DNA of 6,240 bases, taken from the NCBI GenBank assembly GCA_043742065.1, contig JAYTZD010000368.1:1-6240 (forward strand), written 5' to 3'. This stretch comes from Oscillatoriales bacterium. GTDB taxonomy: Bacteria; Cyanobacteriota; Cyanobacteriia; Cyanobacteriales; Microcoleaceae. This document shows positions 1,140 to 6,240 of this stretch, in pieces; positions within the stretch are counted from its first letter, which is position 1; every line of letters begins with the position of its first letter. A model generated the notes under the pieces. The model saw nothing but the letters and a program-made list of their open reading frames with translations. It was not told the origin of the DNA and ran no database searches. Position numbers and translations under genes: made by a program.

Positions 1140-1299
1140 GGTGCATTCTCCATTTTTACTCATTTTACAGTTTTAATTGCTCCTGCACCCATTCTCGCAG
1201 TTTGCTCGTCGGGGTCGTTCCTGTAAAAAAATACGGATATTGGCATTTTCCGACTGTAGACTAAAGTCAGGAGTTGTTCAGTCTGCCGGAGTTAAATCA

Positions 1300-1791
1300 A
1301 TGCCGATCGATCGTCTGTCTGACATGGAAGAAAACTTGGAATCGCTGCAAGAGCAATTAGTGGGCAAGGTGAAGGCGCTAAATTTAGCACCGCAAGAAGA
1401 CAAGACCCGAATTAAACTGCAAATTCGAGAGCTACGCAAGGAGATTCGGGAACAGGAACAGGATTATTGGCAGGTTTTCGCTAGACAAACGAAAACAGTG
1501 GAAATTCCCGAACCGGAAGCTGAGATTATTGTTGCCGAGATTGTCGAAGAAGTTGGGCAAATTGAAGTGCAGCGACAGTATCCCGGTGAAGTGATTCAGA
1601 TATTGCAGCAGATTCGGGACAAGCTGAACCAACCGGGACCCACGGCAGCCGCGAAACTTAAAGGTGTCATTTCCAGCATTCCGCCGTTTGTGGGACTTTC
1701 CATAGAGGGAGAATTCGATGCAGAGAATTTTTTCCAGCAGCATTTCCCAACATTTCGGAAATGGTCTAAGGCACTAGCAAAAAAGTCCTAG
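1300..1791 (+). CDS. Hypothetical coiled-coil protein (163 aa), or the N-terminal module of the downstream NB-ARC protein if the frameshift at 1779-1785 is decoded or corrected
   Basis: ATG 1300 is preceded by GGAG (1288-1291) with an 8-nt spacer. The TTG-1177 extension in the ORF track is rich in R, C and S and does not look like protein. Heptad-like charged region: EENLESLQEQLVGKVKALNLAPQEDKTRIKLQIRELRKEIREQEQDYW. This is followed by an acidic stretch (VEIPEPEAEIIVAEIVEEVGQIEV) and a short hydrophobic segment (GVISSIPPFVGLSI). The ORF ends GCA AAA AAG TCC TAG. Confidence 0.6.
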   Translation: MPIDRLSDMEENLESLQEQLVGKVKALNLAPQEDKTRIKLQIRELRKEIREQEQDYWQVFARQTKTVEIPEPEAEIIVAEIVEEVGQIEVQRQYPGEVIQILQQIRDKLNQPGPTAAAKLKGVISSIPPFVGLSIEGEFDAENFFQQHFPTFRKWSKALAKKS

Positions 1792-1823
1792 ACCTGGAGC
1801 GGAATACACCCAATCCAGGTTTA
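1767..1823 (+). promoter_or_regulatory. Candidate -1 ribosomal frameshift (recoding) cassette: SD-like TAAGG, slippery A AAA AAG, 0-frame stop and a downstream stem-loop
   Basis: TAAGG is at 1767-1771. The heptamer at 1779-1785 is in X XXY YYZ register for the 1300-1791 frame. TAG is at 1789-1791. The stem is 1789-1798 paired with 1814-1823 (core ACCTGGA/TCCAGGT plus U-A, A-U and G-U closing pairs), with a 15-nt loop. A -1 slip enters the NB-ARC frame exactly at 1785. Confidence 0.4.
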
Positions 1824-1895
1824 ACAATTTTTTACCAACTTTACGATATTCCCTCCGAACTCGGTTCCAAAAACTTTGTCGGGCGGGATGAAGAG

Positions 1896-4199
1896 ATGCA
1901 GCAATTGCACGAATTGTTGCAGGATGGGAGCCGCGTTGCCATTGCCGCTGCGTCGGGAATGGGCGGCATCGGCAAGACAGAATTAGCATGGCAGTATGCA
2001 ACTTTTCACCGCGATCGCAATACCTATTCAGCCGGGATTTGGTGGCTGTTTGTGCGGGAAATCGATTTAGCGCCGCAGGTGTTGCAAAAATCGCTGCGAA
2101 TGGGAATTCAGCCGCCGGATACTCTCGACAATCTGGAGGAACGGTTGCAGTTTTGCTACGAAGAGTGGGCAAAAAAAACCTCTGGCAATGCTCTGCTGGT
2201 ATTGGATGATGTCAGCGATTACCGCGCGGTACAGTCGTTGCTGCCTAGAAATCCCCGCTTTAAGGTGTTGCTGACAGCGCGACAAATTGTGCCTCCACCT
2301 GTGGGGTGTTTGCCGTTAAAAGTGTTGAAACCAGAGGCGGCGCTAAACTTGCTGCGGCTGACGGCTGGGGATTTGCCGGGAAACGGGCTGGGACGGATTG
2401 ATGCCCAGCTTGAAGATGCTGAAGCGCTTTGTCAGTGGTTGGATTATTTGCCTTTGGGCATCGAACTGGTGGGGCGCTATCTGCGACGCAAGCGGGCGCT
2501 GTCCGTGGCAGAAATGCTGCAACGGTTGCAGAGTCAGCGATTGGAGGCGCGGGCATTGCAGGAGGCGGAAGCTGGGATGACGGCTAGGCGCGGAGTGGCA
2601 GCAGCTTTTGAGTTGAGTTGGGCGGAGTTGAAACCTCCGGCGCGGACGCTGGGGTGTCTGCTGAGCGTGTTTGCGCTGGCTCCGATTCCTTGGGAGTTGG
2701 TAGCCGATTGTTTGCCGGATTGGGATGGGGAGGATTTGGAGGATTGTCGGGATGACGAACTGCTGGAACAGAGTTTGCTGTCGCTGGTGGAGGATGAAAC
2801 CTCCGATCCGGTTCAATCTGGGCTAGTGCAGCCGCGCTATCAACTTCATGCTTTGATTCGGGAGTTTTTTGCGGCGAAATTGCAGGAACGCGCCGATGCT
2901 GAGGATTTGCGGAGAAGTTTTGCGGTGGCGCTGACAGCGGTGGCAAAGACGATTTCGTATCCGGTGAGGCTGGAGGTGTATGAACGGGTGAAGGAGGTGC
3001 TGCCACATTTGGAGGTGTTGGCGGAGCAATGGTCGCATTTACTGAAAGATAGTGATGCTGTATGGTCTTTCACTAGCTTAGGGTGGGTTGCTCAGGGACA
3101 GAGTTTTTGGGTAGAGGCAGAGAAGTGGTTCAAAGCTTGCCTCCAGATGACAGAGCAACGCTGCGGAACCGACCATCCCGGTACGGCAACGAGTTTGAAC
3201 AACCTGGCAGACCTATACCGTGTAATGGGAGACTGCCCGGAGGCTGAACCCTTGTTAGTGCGATCGCTCTCGATCTGGGAGCAACAGCTCGGAGCTGACC
3301 ATCCCCAGACGGCAAGTAGTTTGAACAATCTGGCAGCGCTGTATTATGCAATGGGTCGTTACGCGGAGGCAGAACCCTTGTTTGTGCGAGCGCTCGCGAT
3401 CAGGGAGCAGCAGCTCGGAGCCGACCATCCCGATACAGCAGGCAGTTTGAACAACCTGGCAGAGCTATACCGTGAAACTGGATGCTACTCGGAGGCGGAA
3501 TCCTTATTGGTGCGATCGGTCGCCATCATAGAGCAGCAGCTCGGAGCCGAGCATCCCCACACGGCTATGAGTTTGAACAATCTAGCAACTCTGTACCATT
3601 CAATGAGTCGCTACGCGGAGGCGGAACCCTTGTTAGTGCGATCGCTCGCCATCTGGGAGCAGCAGCTAGGAACCGACCATCCCCATACTGCTCAGAGTTT
3701 ACACAATCTGGCAGAGCTATACCGTGCAATGAGATGCTACTCGGAGGCGGAACCTTTGTTAGTGCGATCGCTGTCGATCTACCAGCAGCAGAAGCAGCAG
3801 CTAGGAGTTGACCATCCTGATACGGCAAGTAGTTTGAACAGTCTGGCAGGGCTGTACAAGTCAATGGGACGCTACGCGGAGGCGGAATCCTTGTTAGTGC
3901 AAGCGCTCTCGATCTGCGAGCAACAGCCAGGAGCCGACCATCCCGATACGGCAAATAGTTTGAACAGTCTGGCATTGCTGTACCGTGCAATGGGTCGCTA
4001 CCCGGAGGCGGAACCCTTGTATTTGGGAGCATTAGAAATCTTGTTTAACCGATTAGGAGAGGAACATCCAAATACCCGAACCACTTGGAGCAATTTCATT
4101 TATTTTCTTCAGGAGGCGATGTCAGCGGGTCAAGAATCCAAACTTTCCCAGCATCCAACAACGCAATCAATACTTCAGCAACTTCGGGAGATGGAGTAG
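1896..4199 (+). CDS. NB-ARC (STAND, AP-ATPase type) NTPase with a C-terminal TPR array; a bacterial NLR-like protein. The true N-terminus is probably upstream of ATG 1896.
   Basis: Walker A is GMGGIGKTELA (1956-1988) and Walker B is LLVLDDV (2193-2213). KVLLTAR (2262-2282) is RNBS-B/sensor-1-like, and YLPLGIELVG (2445-2474) is GLPL-like. YQLHALIREF is MHD-like, with its His codon at 2847-2849. About 8 units of the 42-aa TPR_10/12 type follow, with consensus LGxDHPxTAxSLNNLAxLYxxMGRYxEAEPLLVRSLAIxEQQ. Confidence 0.92.
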   Translation: MQQLHELLQDGSRVAIAAASGMGGIGKTELAWQYATFHRDRNTYSAGIWWLFVREIDLAPQVLQKSLRMGIQPPDTLDNLEERLQFCYEEWAKKTSGNALLVLDDVSDYRAVQSLLPRNPRFKVLLTARQIVPPPVGCLPLKVLKPEAALNLLRLTAGDLPGNGLGRIDAQLEDAEALCQWLDYLPLGIELVGRYLRRKRALSVAEMLQRLQSQRLEARALQEAEAGMTARRGVAAAFELSWAELKPPARTLGCLLSVFALAPIPWELVADCLPDWDGEDLEDCRDDELLEQSLLSLVEDETSDPVQSGLVQPRYQLHALIREFFAAKLQERADAEDLRRSFAVALTAVAKTISYPVRLEVYERVKEVLPHLEVLAEQWSHLLKDSDAVWSFTSLGWVAQGQSFWVEAEKWFKACLQMTEQRCGTDHPGTATSLNNLADLYRVMGDCPEAEPLLVRSLSIWEQQLGADHPQTASSLNNLAALYYAMGRYAEAEPLFVRALAIREQQLGADHPDTAGSLNNLAELYRETGCYSEAESLLVRSVAIIEQQLGAEHPHTAMSLNNLATLYHSMSRYAEAEPLLVRSLAIWEQQLGTDHPHTAQSLHNLAELYRAMRCYSEAEPLLVRSLSIYQQQKQQLGVDHPDTASSLNSLAGLYKSMGRYAEAESLLVQALSICEQQPGADHPDTANSLNSLALLYRAMGRYPEAEPLYLGALEILFNRLGEEHPNTRTTWSNFIYFLQEAMSAGQESKLSQHPTTQSILQQLREME
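3162..4133 (+). repeat. Tandem 126-bp (42-codon) coding repeats: 7 full TPR units plus a degenerate cap. Unit 5 carries a 9-bp insertion.
   Basis: Unit starts are at 3162, 3288, 3414, 3540, 3666, 3801, 3927 and 4053. The period is exactly 126 nt, except for 135 nt in unit 5. Long strings recur across units, including gaccatccc, agtttgaacaa(t/c)ctggca and gcggaggcggaaccctt(g)ttagtgcgatcgct. A more degenerate half unit precedes the array at about 3048-3161. Confidence 0.92.
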
Positions 4200-4404: not shown

Positions 4405-4650
4405 CTAGGCAACTTCTTCTAACTCAGGAATATGTTCGGCTTCATAGTTTTCAATTAAAACACCAATAACGTCCATCATCGAAGCAAGCGGATGGTTTTC
4501 ATCCTCGCCAACTATATCGATCAGAGTATCTAGTAGCTCGACTAAATGCTCGTATTCTGCTTCGATGCGAGGGACAAAAACCGTTTCAGCAATCAGTGTC
4601 CAAGCAGTAATTGTTCTATCCAGATTAAGACTTTTCATCATTCTTTCCAC
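4405..4650 (-). CDS. higA: HigA-like antitoxin, N-terminal domain only (78-81 aa); the C-terminal HTH domain is absent
   Basis: The gene lies directly downstream of higB and overlaps it. The track start is GTG 4650, but ATG 4641 forms an ATGA overlap with the higB stop and has GAGG 8 nt upstream. The pattern IEAEYEHLVELLDTLIDIVGEDENHPLASMMDVIGVLIENYEAEHIPE matches the N-terminal half of long HigA antitoxins (I-x-x-E-x-x-Y...L...hPL...L...LIxxYE..H.P). The ORF stops where the HTH half would normally begin. Confidence 0.7.
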   Translation of the reverse strand: MERMMKSLNLDRTITAWTLIAETVFVPRIEAEYEHLVELLDTLIDIVGEDENHPLASMMDVIGVLIENYEAEHIPELEEVA

Positions 4651-4925
4651 CTCTCTTCATCGTATTCTGAGTGAGTTAATATAGCCCGAATATATACTTT
4701 ATTCCGATTGTAATGAATAGCAGCAATGAGTCGAACTTTATTTCCTCCTATATTGAAGACAGTCAATTTACCGACTAGATCGGCAGAGGGAAATATTTCG
4801 CGGAGTTCAACGAAGGTTGCAAATTCATTTTGTTTGACAAGTTTGTACCACTGAACCAAGGCATTTGTTGTATCTGGATGAAGTTTAGCAAACTCATTCA
4901 GCCGTTTGCGGGTAATCACGTGCAT
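4638..4925 (-). CDS. higB: Type II toxin HigB (RelE-fold mRNA interferase, HigB_toxin family), 95 aa
   Basis: MHVITRKRLNEFAKLHP...FPSADLVGKLTVFNIGGNKVRLIAAIHYNRNKVYIRAILTHSEYD closely parallels E. coli HigB/YgjN as I recall it (MHLITQKAL...VFNVGGNELRVVAMVFFESQKCYIREVMTHKEYD). The toxin-first gene order is typical of higBA. Confidence 0.9.
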   Translation of the reverse strand: MHVITRKRLNEFAKLHPDTTNALVQWYKLVKQNEFATFVELREIFPSADLVGKLTVFNIGGNKVRLIAAIHYNRNKVYIRAILTHSEYDEERWKE

Positions 4926-5127: not shown

Positions 5128-6240
5128 CTACTTCATCTCATATCCAAACAAATTTGGATCGACTTCTCCCAAATTTAAATCGGCCAAACCATACTCAGCC
5201 CAACGCCGCTGAACCATCGCCGTCATATCAGGATCGGATTCCAAAGGTTTACCCCATTCGTGATCGGTTTCCGGCGGCATCTTCGTAGTAGCATCAATGC
5301 CCATTCTGCCTCCCAAACCAATTTTTTCACTGGCAAAATCTAACGTGTCAAAAGGTGTATTCGGCAAGATAAATACATCTCGAACTGGGTCAACTTTAGA
5401 ACTAATTGCCCAGACTACTTGACGCGGATCGCGAATGTTGATACTTTTATCGACAACAATCACAAACTTAGTGTAAGTAAACTGCGGTAATGCACTCCAA
5501 AATGCTAAAGCAGCCCTGCGCGCTTGACCGGGATATGCTTTATCGATCGAGATAATTGCAGCTTTGTAACTCAGGGCTTCCATCGGTAGGAAGAAATCGA
5601 CAATTTCCGATACTTGCTGCCGCAAAATAGGAGTATAAATGCGATTCAGCGCGATCGCCATCATCGCTTCTTCTTTCGGTGGCCGCCCGCTAAATGTGGT
5701 TAGATAAATTGGGTCTTTGCGGTGTGTCATGCAGTTGAATCGTACCAGTGGCGAATCTTCGACACCGCCGTAATAACCCATGTGGTCGCCGAAGGGCCCG
5801 TCTGGCAAAACTTCACCGGGGGTAATCGTTCCTTCTAATACGATTTCCGAGTCTGCGGGTACTTCCAAATCTACGGTTTTGCACTTTGCCAATTGCACGC
5901 CGGAACCGCCATAAAGTCCGGCAAATAACCATTCGGATAAATCTACAGGAATTGGGGTAGCTGCGGCTAGGATGATTAGTGGGTCAACTCCCAGGGCGAT
6001 CGCAACTTCCAACTTTTTACCAGCCTGCGCCGCTTTTCGCAAGTGTCGCGCCCCACCCCGCACCGATAACCAGTGTACAGTCATCGTGTTTTTTGACTGC
6101 AACTGCAACCGATAAACGCCCACATTCGGCGTACCCGTTTCGCAATCTTTGGTAATTACCAAACCCAAGGTGATAATTTTGCCCGCATCTCCCGGATAGG
6201 GGCGAATCATCGGGATTTTGTTCAAATCCAGCCCTTCTCC
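5128..6240 (-). CDS. ubiD: UbiD-family (prenylated-FMN dependent) decarboxylase, likely 4-hydroxy-3-polyprenylbenzoate decarboxylase. Partial: the N-terminus lies beyond the window.
   Basis: The frame stays open to position 6240 (…GEGLDLNKIPMIRP…). The track 'M' at 6225 is a TTG read as Leu. Conserved UbiD strings are present: ITLGLVITKDCETGTPNVGVYRLQL, GGARH, GPFGDHMGYYGG and FVIVVDKSINIRD. Stop TAG is at 5128-5130. Confidence 0.9.
   Translation of the reverse strand, partial: GEGLDLNKIPMIRPYPGDAGKIITLGLVITKDCETGTPNVGVYRLQLQSKNTMTVHWLSVRGGARHLRKAAQAGKKLEVAIALGVDPLIILAAATPIPVDLSEWLFAGLYGGSGVQLAKCKTVDLEVPADSEIVLEGTITPGEVLPDGPFGDHMGYYGGVEDSPLVRFNCMTHRKDPIYLTTFSGRPPKEEAMMAIALNRIYTPILRQQVSEIVDFFLPMEALSYKAAIISIDKAYPGQARRAALAFWSALPQFTYTKFVIVVDKSINIRDPRQVVWAISSKVDPVRDVFILPNTPFDTLDFASEKIGLGGRMGIDATTKMPPETDHEWGKPLESDPDMTAMVQRRWAEYGLADLNLGEVDPNLFGYEMK

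Follow-up and report, generated by a model that had tools for sequence, protein, structure and literature searches.

How can an NLR-like gene be expressed that is open over 804 codons and has no start codon at its own 5' end? The question is raised by a locus of an Oscillatoriales bacterium (Microcoleaceae; GenBank assembly GCA_043742065.1), in positions 1 to 6,240 of contig JAYTZD010000368.1, forward strand; this whole stretch of 6,240 nucleotides (nt) is called the window here. A short open reading frame (ORF), ORF1, is followed there in the -1 frame by an NB-ARC/TPR gene of the STAND NTPase type, and an initial annotation, made from the letters alone, had proposed that the two are linked by a -1 frameshift at a slippery A_AAA_AAG heptamer. 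From the comparative evidence presented below, we think it very probable that some form of programmed recoding operates, and we consider a programmed -1 ribosomal frameshift at this locus to be probable.

Anatomy of the junction

The argument makes use of the following features of the window.

1288..1291, + strand: GGAG, Shine-Dalgarno (SD)-like, 8 nt 5' of ATG1300, read from the sequence
1300..1791 (ATG1300 to TAG1789-1791), + strand: ORF1, zero-frame product of 163 aa, ending ...FRKWSKALAKKS*
1767..1771, + strand: TAAGG, with TAA 1767-69 as the final stop of the -1 frame 5' of the slip site
1779..1785, + strand: slippery heptamer A_AAA_AAG, with AAA 1780-82 and AAG 1783-85 as ORF1 codons
1789..1791, + strand: zero-frame stop TAG, one codon past the heptamer
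1789..1823, + strand: predicted stimulatory hairpin, arms 1789-1798/1814-1823, 15-nt loop
1785..1895, + strand: linker plus N-terminal portion of the NTPase, -1 frame, 37 codons, VLDLER...LYDIPSELGSKNFVGRDEE, without a start codon
1785..4199, + strand: -1-frame NB-ARC/TPR STAND NTPase by Pfam matches, 804 codons and stop
1956..1979, + strand: Walker A motif (P-loop) GMGGIGKT of the NB-ARC domain, read from the translation
3164..4020, + strand: TPR repeat array, 6.7 copies of 126-nt (42-aa) units, putative sensor region

ATG1300 is the sole plausible initiation site for both products. A weak promoter-like match lies 5' of ORF1 at 1240-1267, and no terminator-like site was found between ORF1 and the NB-ARC gene when one was sought. 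ORF1 ends with GCA AAA AAG TCC TAG (1777-1791), where A_AAA_AAG falls in the X_XXY_YYZ register of the zero frame that characterizes programmed ribosomal frameshift sites. From 1770 to its stop TAG at 4197-99 the -1 frame is open; ahead of ATG1896 it has no ATG, GTG or TTG, only CTG1794, ATT1827 and ATT1848. From GTC1785 on, the 37 codons ahead of ATG1896 translate as VLDLERNTPNPGLTIFYQLYDIPSELGSKNFVGRDEE, followed by MQQLH..., and the conceptual trans-frame fusion (ORF1 residues 1-162 plus the -1 product) has 966 aa. The predicted fusion would read ...SKALAKKVLDLE across the slip junction, and NTPNPGLTIFYQLYDIPSELGSK is a tryptic peptide encoded 5' of ATG1896. Every coordinate that the initial annotation had given for the end of ORF1, the register of the heptamer and the open -1 frame was checked and is correct, as is its statement that no start codon occurs in the NB-ARC frame until 1896; the sizes of 163 aa for the unshifted and 966 aa for the shifted product were reproduced.

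The mere presence of the heptamer is not informative, as AAAAAAG is expected 2.4 times in 6.2 kb and a single copy is unremarkable; chance statistics of the lone heptamer were therefore rejected as evidence. Its significance rests on register, position and conservation.

An A8 run at 2171-2178, rightly described before as being in frame, lies inside the NB-ARC gene, in whose register it reads A_AAA_AAA. Ribosomes slipping by -1 at this run would terminate after about 10 codons, and the Lys-Lys pair that it encodes is not conserved (AKQ in protein P0028). As a slip site, the A8 run is probably incidental.

Coding sequence ahead of ATG1896

Judged by its Pfam matches, the -1 ORF is a STAND NTPase of the NB-ARC (AP-ATPase) clade: the NB-ARC profile is matched with E = 1.7e-12 and 47.5 bits (cut-off 23.5), and the NB-ARC domain with its Walker A motif is followed by an array of TPR_12/TPR_10 repeats (TPR_12, E = 4.5e-116), which is the architecture of NLR-like STAND proteins. 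Against the PADLOC models, the -1 protein of the window gave only a weak match to the generic TPR-repeat model PDLC01169, and no defence-specific model was matched. The units of the array have 77% matches, and the proteins of close relatives measure 665, 767 and 809 aa, which suggests that repeat units of the sensor region are gained and lost among relatives.

Gene callers start this gene at ATG1896 and obtain a protein of 767 aa. In the -1 product, the matches to the AAA_16 and NB-ARC profiles start at residues 30 and 35, ahead of M38, which is encoded by ATG1896. Moreover, residues 19-37 (LYDIPSELGSKNFVGRDEE) align with residues 39-57 of P0036, a contiguous NB-ARC protein of Pegethrix with 66% identity overall. 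The 37 linker codons were compared among 11 Microcoleus-type sequences. In codons 1-19 the changes are mostly at the amino-acid level and a stop is never acquired, the pattern expected of a variable linker, whereas eight of codons 20-37 vary, seven of them purely synonymously in the -1 frame. Met38 is conserved within Microcoleus and is replaced by Leu in other lineages. By these comparisons, coding selection acts in the -1 frame on the sequence 5' of ATG1896, which is homologous to NB-ARC proteins; the 37 codons had been said to read as real protein, and the synonymous changes together with the NB-ARC homology bear this out for codons 20-37. A start at ATG1896 would thus lose a conserved part of the NTPase, and an independent start there was rejected on the profile start, the synonymous pattern and the P0036 homology. 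The downstream frame overlaps ORF1 briefly, has no start of its own and is coding up to the slip site.

Conservation of the split junction

Two relatives, L001 (a JGI metagenome) and L002 (Microcoleus sp. CAWBG58), were found first, by clustering of the 767-aa ATG-started protein; a scan of GTDB genomes and JGI metagenomes with an alignment of the ORF1 domain then gave 38 further loci, and contig look-ups gave 3. About 45 loci (numbered with L; proteins are numbered with P) were available in total, and 36 of them were counted as having, or recently having had, a downstream -1 ORF. L001 and L002 contain an ORF of 163-164 aa ending with G[CG]A AAA AAG TC[CA] TAG, a 104-nt gap and an open -1 frame as in the window. 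Besides the window, 11 independent Microcoleus-type assemblies and metagenome contigs carry the identical run of six A and a G (A6G), the 104-nt gap and the -1 ORF, which excludes the A7-to-A6 assembly error that the initial annotation had listed as an alternative.

All 36 loci show NNA AAA AAR in the zero-frame register, then 0-3 codons and a stop (0 codons past the heptamer in 12 loci, 1 in 19, 2 in 2 and 3 in 3). They come from Microcoleus, Nostoc, Anabaena, Leptolyngbya, Pseudanabaena and other genera, and their ORF1 domains are 36-85% identical. The codon before AAA AAG may be GCA, GGA, GTA, CTA, CCA or AAA, its silent third base being A in every case, and AAG AAA, AAG AAG or NNG AAA AAG never occurs where a -1 ORF follows. 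Site and frame are therefore conserved beyond what the protein requires, with the silent A kept across six codons and GCG AAA AAG used in L032, where no -1 ORF follows. The five homologues without a long -1 ORF all lack the heptamer: L009 reads GGA AAA AAC, L011 GCC AAA AAA TGG and L032 GCG AAA AAG TGA, and L021 and L026 have no KK. The check proposed earlier, whether orthologues are split or contiguous, thus has a clear answer: orthologues and paralogues are split at exactly this site, with the heptamer in 36/36 loci versus 0/5.

The -1 frame of the intact loci is open from 13-124 nt ahead of the stop, 16-19 nt being the commonest distance, and runs for about 200-1179 codons, and in most loci its first ATG, GTG or TTG comes 62-731 nt past the stop. 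For the group with nine A at the junction (A9), this distance is 539 nt in L013 of Anabaena, 731 nt in L022 of Nostoc and 248 nt in L035.

The modules on either side of the junction vary. The -1 module is NB-ARC-TPR in the window, L010, L014, L016, L017 and L020, NACHT in L018 and L019, transmembrane (TM)-TPR in L024 and L028, AAA_16/TPR in L042 and nSTAND_NTPase4 in L013. The L013 product also matches PADLOC PDC-S60 and, with E = 8e-173, positions 295-994 of the NCBIfam profile DS8_antiphage from its residue 9 on, at 577 bits, below the equivalog cut-off of 790; as the match starts at residue 9, the homology begins right at the slip site. These DS8/PDC-S60 matches of the L013-type paralogue may be taken as an indirect hint of an anti-phage or cell-death function. 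On the other side, 5' of the ORF1 domain, an HTH-TRADD-N part is found in L008 (= P0031) and a TIR domain in L042 (= P0044). Therefore, the conserved unit is an optional effector, the ORF1 domain, the slip site and a STAND module in the -1 frame. As far as these domain assignments go, the junction is a portable cassette that precedes at least three STAND classes in cyanobacteria. The initial annotation had described the arrangement for this gene; the junction is real, but it is not special to the gene and is a family-wide cassette ahead of several STAND classes.

In L042, three STAND-type genes stand in tandem (507-8969), and the A_AAA_AAG junction is present only in the middle pair, TIR-ORF1 domain-[-1]-AAA_16/TPR. 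The first set consists of a 144-aa ORF and an NB-ARC-TPR gene, and the third of a 221-aa TIR protein and another long ORF.

Hairpin and other putative stimulators

The 10-bp stem that had been described just downstream of the heptamer (1789-1798/1814-1823) does exist: it counts 10 pairs, one of which is G-U, around a loop of 15 nt, with an energy of -16.8 kcal/mol for the centroid and -18.4 for the minimum free energy structure, a z-score of -3.85 versus shuffles and an empirical p = 0.022 versus local 45-nt windows. The G+C core CCUGGA/UCCAGG starts 7 nt past the heptamer. Only 3 of 11 distinct relatives have the outermost U-A pair, which leaves a conserved stem of 9 bp, and among the Microcoleus sequences two changes of the stem lead to G-U, while the loop takes up most of the variation.

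Enrichment of structure was evaluated over non-redundant lineages by comparing the 45 nt 3' of the heptamer with local 45-nt windows. In the A6G lineages, an empirical p < 0.1 was obtained for 10 of 15 (Fisher combined p = 3e-6), whereas the A9/A10 loci showed no structure enrichment after the run (Fisher p = 0.40). The A6G stems are unrelated in sequence and start 2-8 nt past the heptamer, and perfect stems of 9-10 bp are present in L010, L014, L017 and L042. A stimulatory structure is accordingly predicted for the window, with a spacer of 3-7 nt and no covariation within Microcoleus. An Rfam scan of the window returned no frameshift element.

The TAAGG element noted upstream is also present at 1767-1771, and its AAGG, 7 nt 5' of the heptamer, is a candidate weak SD-like stimulator. 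AAGG, AGGT or GGTG is found 7-11 nt upstream in many loci and is absent from L002, L004, L010, L012, L018 and L029.

Contiguous versions and A7 alleles

A fusion query, formed by ORF1 and the first 146 residues of the -1 product, was compared with 5.8 billion protein clusters. None of the 148 matches covers both halves (maximum coverage 54%), so the search for contiguous fusions, also proposed in the initial annotation, found none in this subfamily. Like the recurrence of A6G and the split at the heptamer, this outcome favours programmed recoding. The exceptions to the split are A7 alleles, L003/L007 and L023, and they read as the predicted trans-frame product. In L003/L007 the junction is GCA AAA AAA GTC GTA GAC C..., giving ...LAKK-VVD... 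fused to TPRs. L023 (4001-5743) has GCA AAA AAA GCT CTA GCC and a single ORF1 domain-NACHT ORF, whose protein shares 65% identity with the -1 product of L019. The A7 alleles show that the predicted trans-frame reading would be a meaningful protein. A one-base insertion is easily reached and yet rare, which argues for selection to keep the split.

The locus at 4223-6833 of L003, which is the same as that of L007, is decayed: the NB-ARC domain is missing, the ORF1 domain is joined to a TPR repeat after ...GTAGACC, and the HTH-TRADD-N part contains in-frame TGA and TAA stops besides the A7 run. The shared GACC in L003 suggests a microhomology deletion. L023 comes from a metagenome-assembled genome, and its A7 may be a real allele or a homopolymer error of the assembly.

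The ORF1 domain

ORF1 belongs to no family in Pfam, NCBIfam or PADLOC (at E < 0.1 Pfam gave only a spurious MlaD match). Its AlphaFold2 model, built with 33 homologues, is all-alpha with a pLDDT of 82, a long helical hairpin being followed by a small helical bundle, and a Foldseek search of the model against the PDB returned only generic helical bundles with E >= 1, from which no fold can be assigned. A profile search of 1.84 billion representatives gave 395 family members at 50% identity. The domain is nearly always C-terminal, either as a stand-alone protein of about 160-175 aa or after TRADD-N, TIR, SEFIR/TIR, SNF2, Roc-COR or NACHT domains, and about 70 of 145 family representatives have a ...KK terminus. 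A minority of divergent members (P0182, P0233, P0178 and P0266) lack the KK junction and carry the domain in frame, N-terminal to nSTAND1, TPR or TIR; the domain followed by a STAND module is therefore a natural architecture.

Occurrence on diverse effectors and also at the N-termini of STAND or ternary-system NTPases is the behaviour of an effector-associated domain (EAD). The Pfam models EAD1-11 did not match the ORF1 domain, which is not a catalogued EAD. By this distribution, we infer that the ORF1 domain behaves like an EAD, as a homotypic adaptor. ORF1 had been described as a coiled-coil ORF; it is not merely a coiled coil, and that description is replaced by a widespread all-alpha, adaptor-like domain that is usually C-terminal.

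Weighing the explanations

Several observations speak against a programmed ribosomal frameshift. Neither the G of the heptamer nor its register is independent of the conserved Lys-Lys: together with the A6 run, that pair of residues forces both, and therefore conservation cannot separate ribosomal from transcriptional or DNA slippage. Only 3-4 nt separate the first pair of the hairpin from the heptamer (the G+C core is 7 nt away), the classic distance between heptamer and structure being 5-9 nt. The Microcoleus stem shows no compensatory or double changes, which makes covariation uninformative, L008 has two stem-disrupting changes yet keeps the arrangement, and no obvious hairpin was found in the A6G loci L018, L036 and L040. 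A -1-frame start codon at or before the stop makes independent initiation possible in L018, L024, L027, L028, L036 and L041. Furthermore, the loci decay often (L003, L043, L044); L043 keeps the heptamer with the NTPase deleted directly after TAGACCTGGAG, the -1 ORF of L044 ends after 140 codons, and both look like recent decay.

Programmed transcriptional slippage, in which RNA polymerase would add one A in the A6 run and some mRNAs would encode the contiguous 966 aa, seems unlikely to us for the window. Six A are short for efficient slippage by bacterial RNA polymerase, and the length of about 8-9 or more A/T is not reached in the window, though it is in the A9/A10 relatives. The recoding site is nevertheless a homopolymer, the conservation data do not separate the transcriptional from the ribosomal mechanism, and the runs of A9 in L013, L022, L035, L037 and L041 and of A10G in L015 have no downstream structure, as is typical of slippage sites like that of Thermus dnaX (main text of Antonov et al. 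2013, PMC3711429). The reporter data given in the same main text amount to about 10% at A7 and more at A9-A11 (PMC3711429). Selected slippage would predict longer runs in the 30 A6G loci, and the A6G lineages have the enriched hairpin and a stop 0-1 codons away, as expected for a ribosomal shift. The Nostoc/Anabaena-type loci L013 (4486-6627), L022, L035, L037 and L041 have an A9 junction without a hairpin, and their -1-frame stop is formed by ATT-AAA codons directly before the run; they are candidates for transcriptional slippage rather than a ribosomal shift. For the A6G class, including the window, the predicted downstream structure favours ribosomal frameshifting.

The remaining explanations dispense with recoding of this kind. 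If two genes were translated separately, ORF1 as a stand-alone protein with KK-stop as the natural end of its domain and NB-ARC/TPR from ATG1896 or CTG1794, the silent third-base A and the choice of AAA AAG in 36/36 loci would be left unexplained. This model also conflicts with the NB-ARC/AAA_16 profiles and P0036 homology that start before M38, with purifying selection on codons 20-37 5' of ATG1896, with the Leu in place of M38 in other lineages, and with the A9 group (L013, L022, L035), where the first start lies 248-731 nt downstream and the DS8 homology of L013 runs from residue 9. We consider it improbable, even if gene callers annotate two genes, the ORF1 domain is C-terminal in most family members, TRADD-N beside AP-ATPase-TPR genes has been described as a two-gene neighbourhood (Kaur et al. 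2021, PMC8195603), ATG1896 is conserved within Microcoleus and start codons overlap the stop in a few loci. A phase-variable switch at the DNA level would have A6 as the OFF state and a rare A7, arising by replication slippage, as the ON state with the full-length NLR. In-frame A7 alleles do exist (L023, L003/L007) in a gene family that is immunity-related and potentially toxic, but of the three A7 cases, two (L003/L007) are a single decayed locus with NB-ARC deleted and stops in TRADD-N. Contingency loci make an A6 tract look too short for useful switching rates. With A6 invariant in 12/12 Microcoleus-type loci, hence no tract-length polymorphism, a shift-requiring A6 or A9 in about 33/36 loci and hairpin enrichment that a switch does not explain, this possibility appears very improbable. 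Hardly credible, in our opinion, is a mistake of sequencing or assembly, or an indel that inactivated the gene and made it a pseudogene in this genome. The junction is a homopolymer and related loci do decay (L043, L044), but the same A6G and frames recur across genera and in numerous independent assemblies, the 804 codons of the downstream frame are unbroken and under purifying selection, and the subfamily has no in-frame orthologue; sequencing error or private mutation was rejected on this recurrence of the A6G split.

Relation to known systems

The identity with the slip-site context of E. coli dnaX, which the initial annotation stated, was confirmed: E. coli K-12 dnaX (NC_000913.3) reads ...aaagcaaaaaagagtga... 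and contains the 10-mer AGCAAAAAAG. Both genes share this 10-mer, A_AAA_AAG in register, a hairpin a few nt downstream and possibly an upstream SD-like element, although the AGGGAG of dnaX, 10 nt upstream, is much stronger than the AAGG found here. As with tau and gamma, two products with a common N-terminal part would be made at a set ratio. In dnaX, however, the shifted product is the short one (gamma, ended by a -1-frame stop) and here it is the long one, and dnaX encodes a clamp-loader subunit, not a STAND immune NTPase. E. coli dnaX has A6G with a hairpin and shifts at the ribosome, and Thermus dnaX has A9 and slips in transcription (main text of PMC3711429). The contrast between A6G with a hairpin and A9 without one in the present family mirrors that between the two dnaX genes.

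The logic of the ORF1/NB-ARC junction is also that of the IS3 orfA-orfAB genes (IS911, IS150) and of the tail assembly chaperone frameshift G/GT of phage lambda. In those systems, a short ORF ends past a heptamer, often A_AAA_AAG, and is followed by a -1 ORF without a start; the upstream domain forms the N-terminus of the fusion, and the free short product works with the fusion at a fixed ratio. Here, in contrast, the gene encodes neither a transposase nor a virion assembly protein, the locus has no associated inverted repeats or transposase domains, and the cassette is joined to several unrelated NTPase classes. In fungal NWD2/HET-S and bacterial BASS (Bell-domain/NLR) systems, an effector or adaptor gene lies directly 5' of the NLR gene, and its C-terminal element equals the N-terminal element of the NLR, which serves templated or homotypic signalling. 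There a short amyloid motif is encoded twice, whereas here one helical domain of 160 aa would serve both products.

TRADD-N next to AP-ATPase-TPR was reported as a conserved two-gene neighbourhood by Kaur, Iyer, Burroughs and Aravind in 2021 (PMC8195603). The present loci belong to the same organisms as those TRADD-N/EAD systems and resemble them in their HTH-TRADD-N proteins (P0002, P0031), in a CyanoTRADDas_TM neighbour and in the adjoining NB-ARC (AP-ATPase)-TPR gene, and the ORF1 domain resembles EADs in being found on TIR, SEFIR, TRADD-N, SNF2 and Roc-COR proteins and at STAND N-termini. The difference lies in the link between the genes, which here would be translational recoding and not adjacency alone; the word 'frameshift' does not occur in Kaur et al. 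2021 (PMC8195603). In the main text on GeneTack (Antonov et al. 2013, PMC3711429), conserved poly-A frameshifts annotated as adjacent genes are described, such as Mg-chelatase chlD/bchD, and occasional naturally fused orthologues are taken as evidence of a functional fusion. The split studied here is a conserved poly-A split of the same sort in a different gene family; supplementary cluster tables aside, that main text contains no STAND, NACHT or TPR cluster (PMC3711429), and no STAND, NACHT or TPR genes appear in the searched text of a 2016 recoding review. Literature searches for frameshifting with STAND, NACHT, NB-ARC, EAD, TRADD-N or defence found nothing relevant, and within the searched literature recoding in NLR-like immune genes appears to be unreported.

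Proposed mechanism

The anatomy of the junction, its conservation, the coding signal ahead of ATG1896 and the enrichment of hairpins, as observed here, can be accommodated in the following scheme. A single mRNA would be translated from ATG1300. Most ribosomes would read GCA AAA AAG TCC and stop at TAG1789, releasing a free 163-aa, all-alpha, adaptor-like protein, and a fraction would slip by -1 with two Lys-tRNAs on A_AAA_AAG (1779-1785), probably aided by the hairpin at 1789-1823 and perhaps by the adjacent stop. The slipped ribosomes would continue with GTC CTA GAC... to produce the 966-aa protein in which the domain is joined to NB-ARC/TPR. The frameshift would thereby determine how much adaptor is free or effector-linked relative to that tethered to the sensor, and an activated, oligomerised STAND protein might recruit or nucleate the free copies. 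We infer the ribosomal nature of the slip, its efficiency and the role of the adaptor from the features above, and the adaptor model is put forward with lower confidence than the ribosomal reading.

More speculatively, the domain with its A_AAA_AAG might act as a mobile 'stoichiometry cassette' of cyanobacterial innate immunity, with an excess of free or effector-carrying adaptor, little tethered adaptor and an NTPase that, once oligomerised on sensing an invader, nucleates assembly of the free copies through its clustered N-terminal domains. Such signalling would be comparable to that of NLR-ASC or NWD2/HET-S, except that a single copy of the domain would encode both partners; it would then be the first NLR-type receptor to need recoding. 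We regard this as a tentative idea, and a rather doubtful one at present.

Genomic neighbourhood

The other annotated features of the window are these.

165-377, + strand: HTH_26 (XRE-type) gene, 70 aa
539-913, - strand: RelE/ParE-like toxin, 124 aa, overlapping an upstream 87-aa partner at 900-1163
4638-4925, - strand: HigB toxin, followed by an overlapping 81-aa ORF at 4405-4650 in the usual higBA order
5128-6225, - strand: UbiD-family decarboxylase gene

Two toxin-antitoxin-like pairs, at 539-1163 and 4405-4925 (both on the - strand), flank the NLR locus. Relatives have between one and four HTH_26 genes, and the locus lies in what looks like a variable island between HTH_26 genes and the UbiD gene. 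The content of the island varies by strain (L002, L003, L043, L044) and includes TRADD-N with CyanoTRADDas_TM, kinase-FGE, PMT_2, Fic/MazE and DUF6887/DUF6888. The intergenic spacer that separates the HTH_26 gene from the one for the RelE/ParE-like toxin contains, at 425-530, an inverted repeat that is long and nearly perfect, with an outer stem of about 26 bp, -57 kcal/mol and z = -7.0. In Rfam, the hairpin at 426-530 gave only weak matches to miRNA precursors, as any long generic hairpin does. The repeat may be an element resembling miniature inverted-repeat transposable elements or a cyanobacterial repeat element.

Significance

To our knowledge, few bacterial genes that are cellular and not mobile have a conserved programmed frameshift (dnaX, prfB, copA, csoS2 and Mg-chelatase are among them), and we know of none in NLR-like immune receptors. 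That NLR-like immune genes use a -1 slip site of the classical type as a portable junction is supported here by strong comparative evidence. If this is true, hundreds of cyanobacterial STAND genes would be mis-annotated, each as a 'hypothetical protein' and an NTPase that lacks its N-terminal part, and at least three STAND classes would be linked by a new adaptor domain to effectors such as TIR, TRADD-N and SEFIR. One gene family would also offer a natural comparison of A6G-plus-hairpin with A9 sites. Besides, there would be a testable rule for how bacteria set the ratio of immune sensor to adaptor or effector. Should the cassette idea hold as well, the efficiency of frameshifting could respond to infection through the modification or supply of Lys-tRNA or through translation stress, and the ratio of receptor to adaptor would then be a regulated one.

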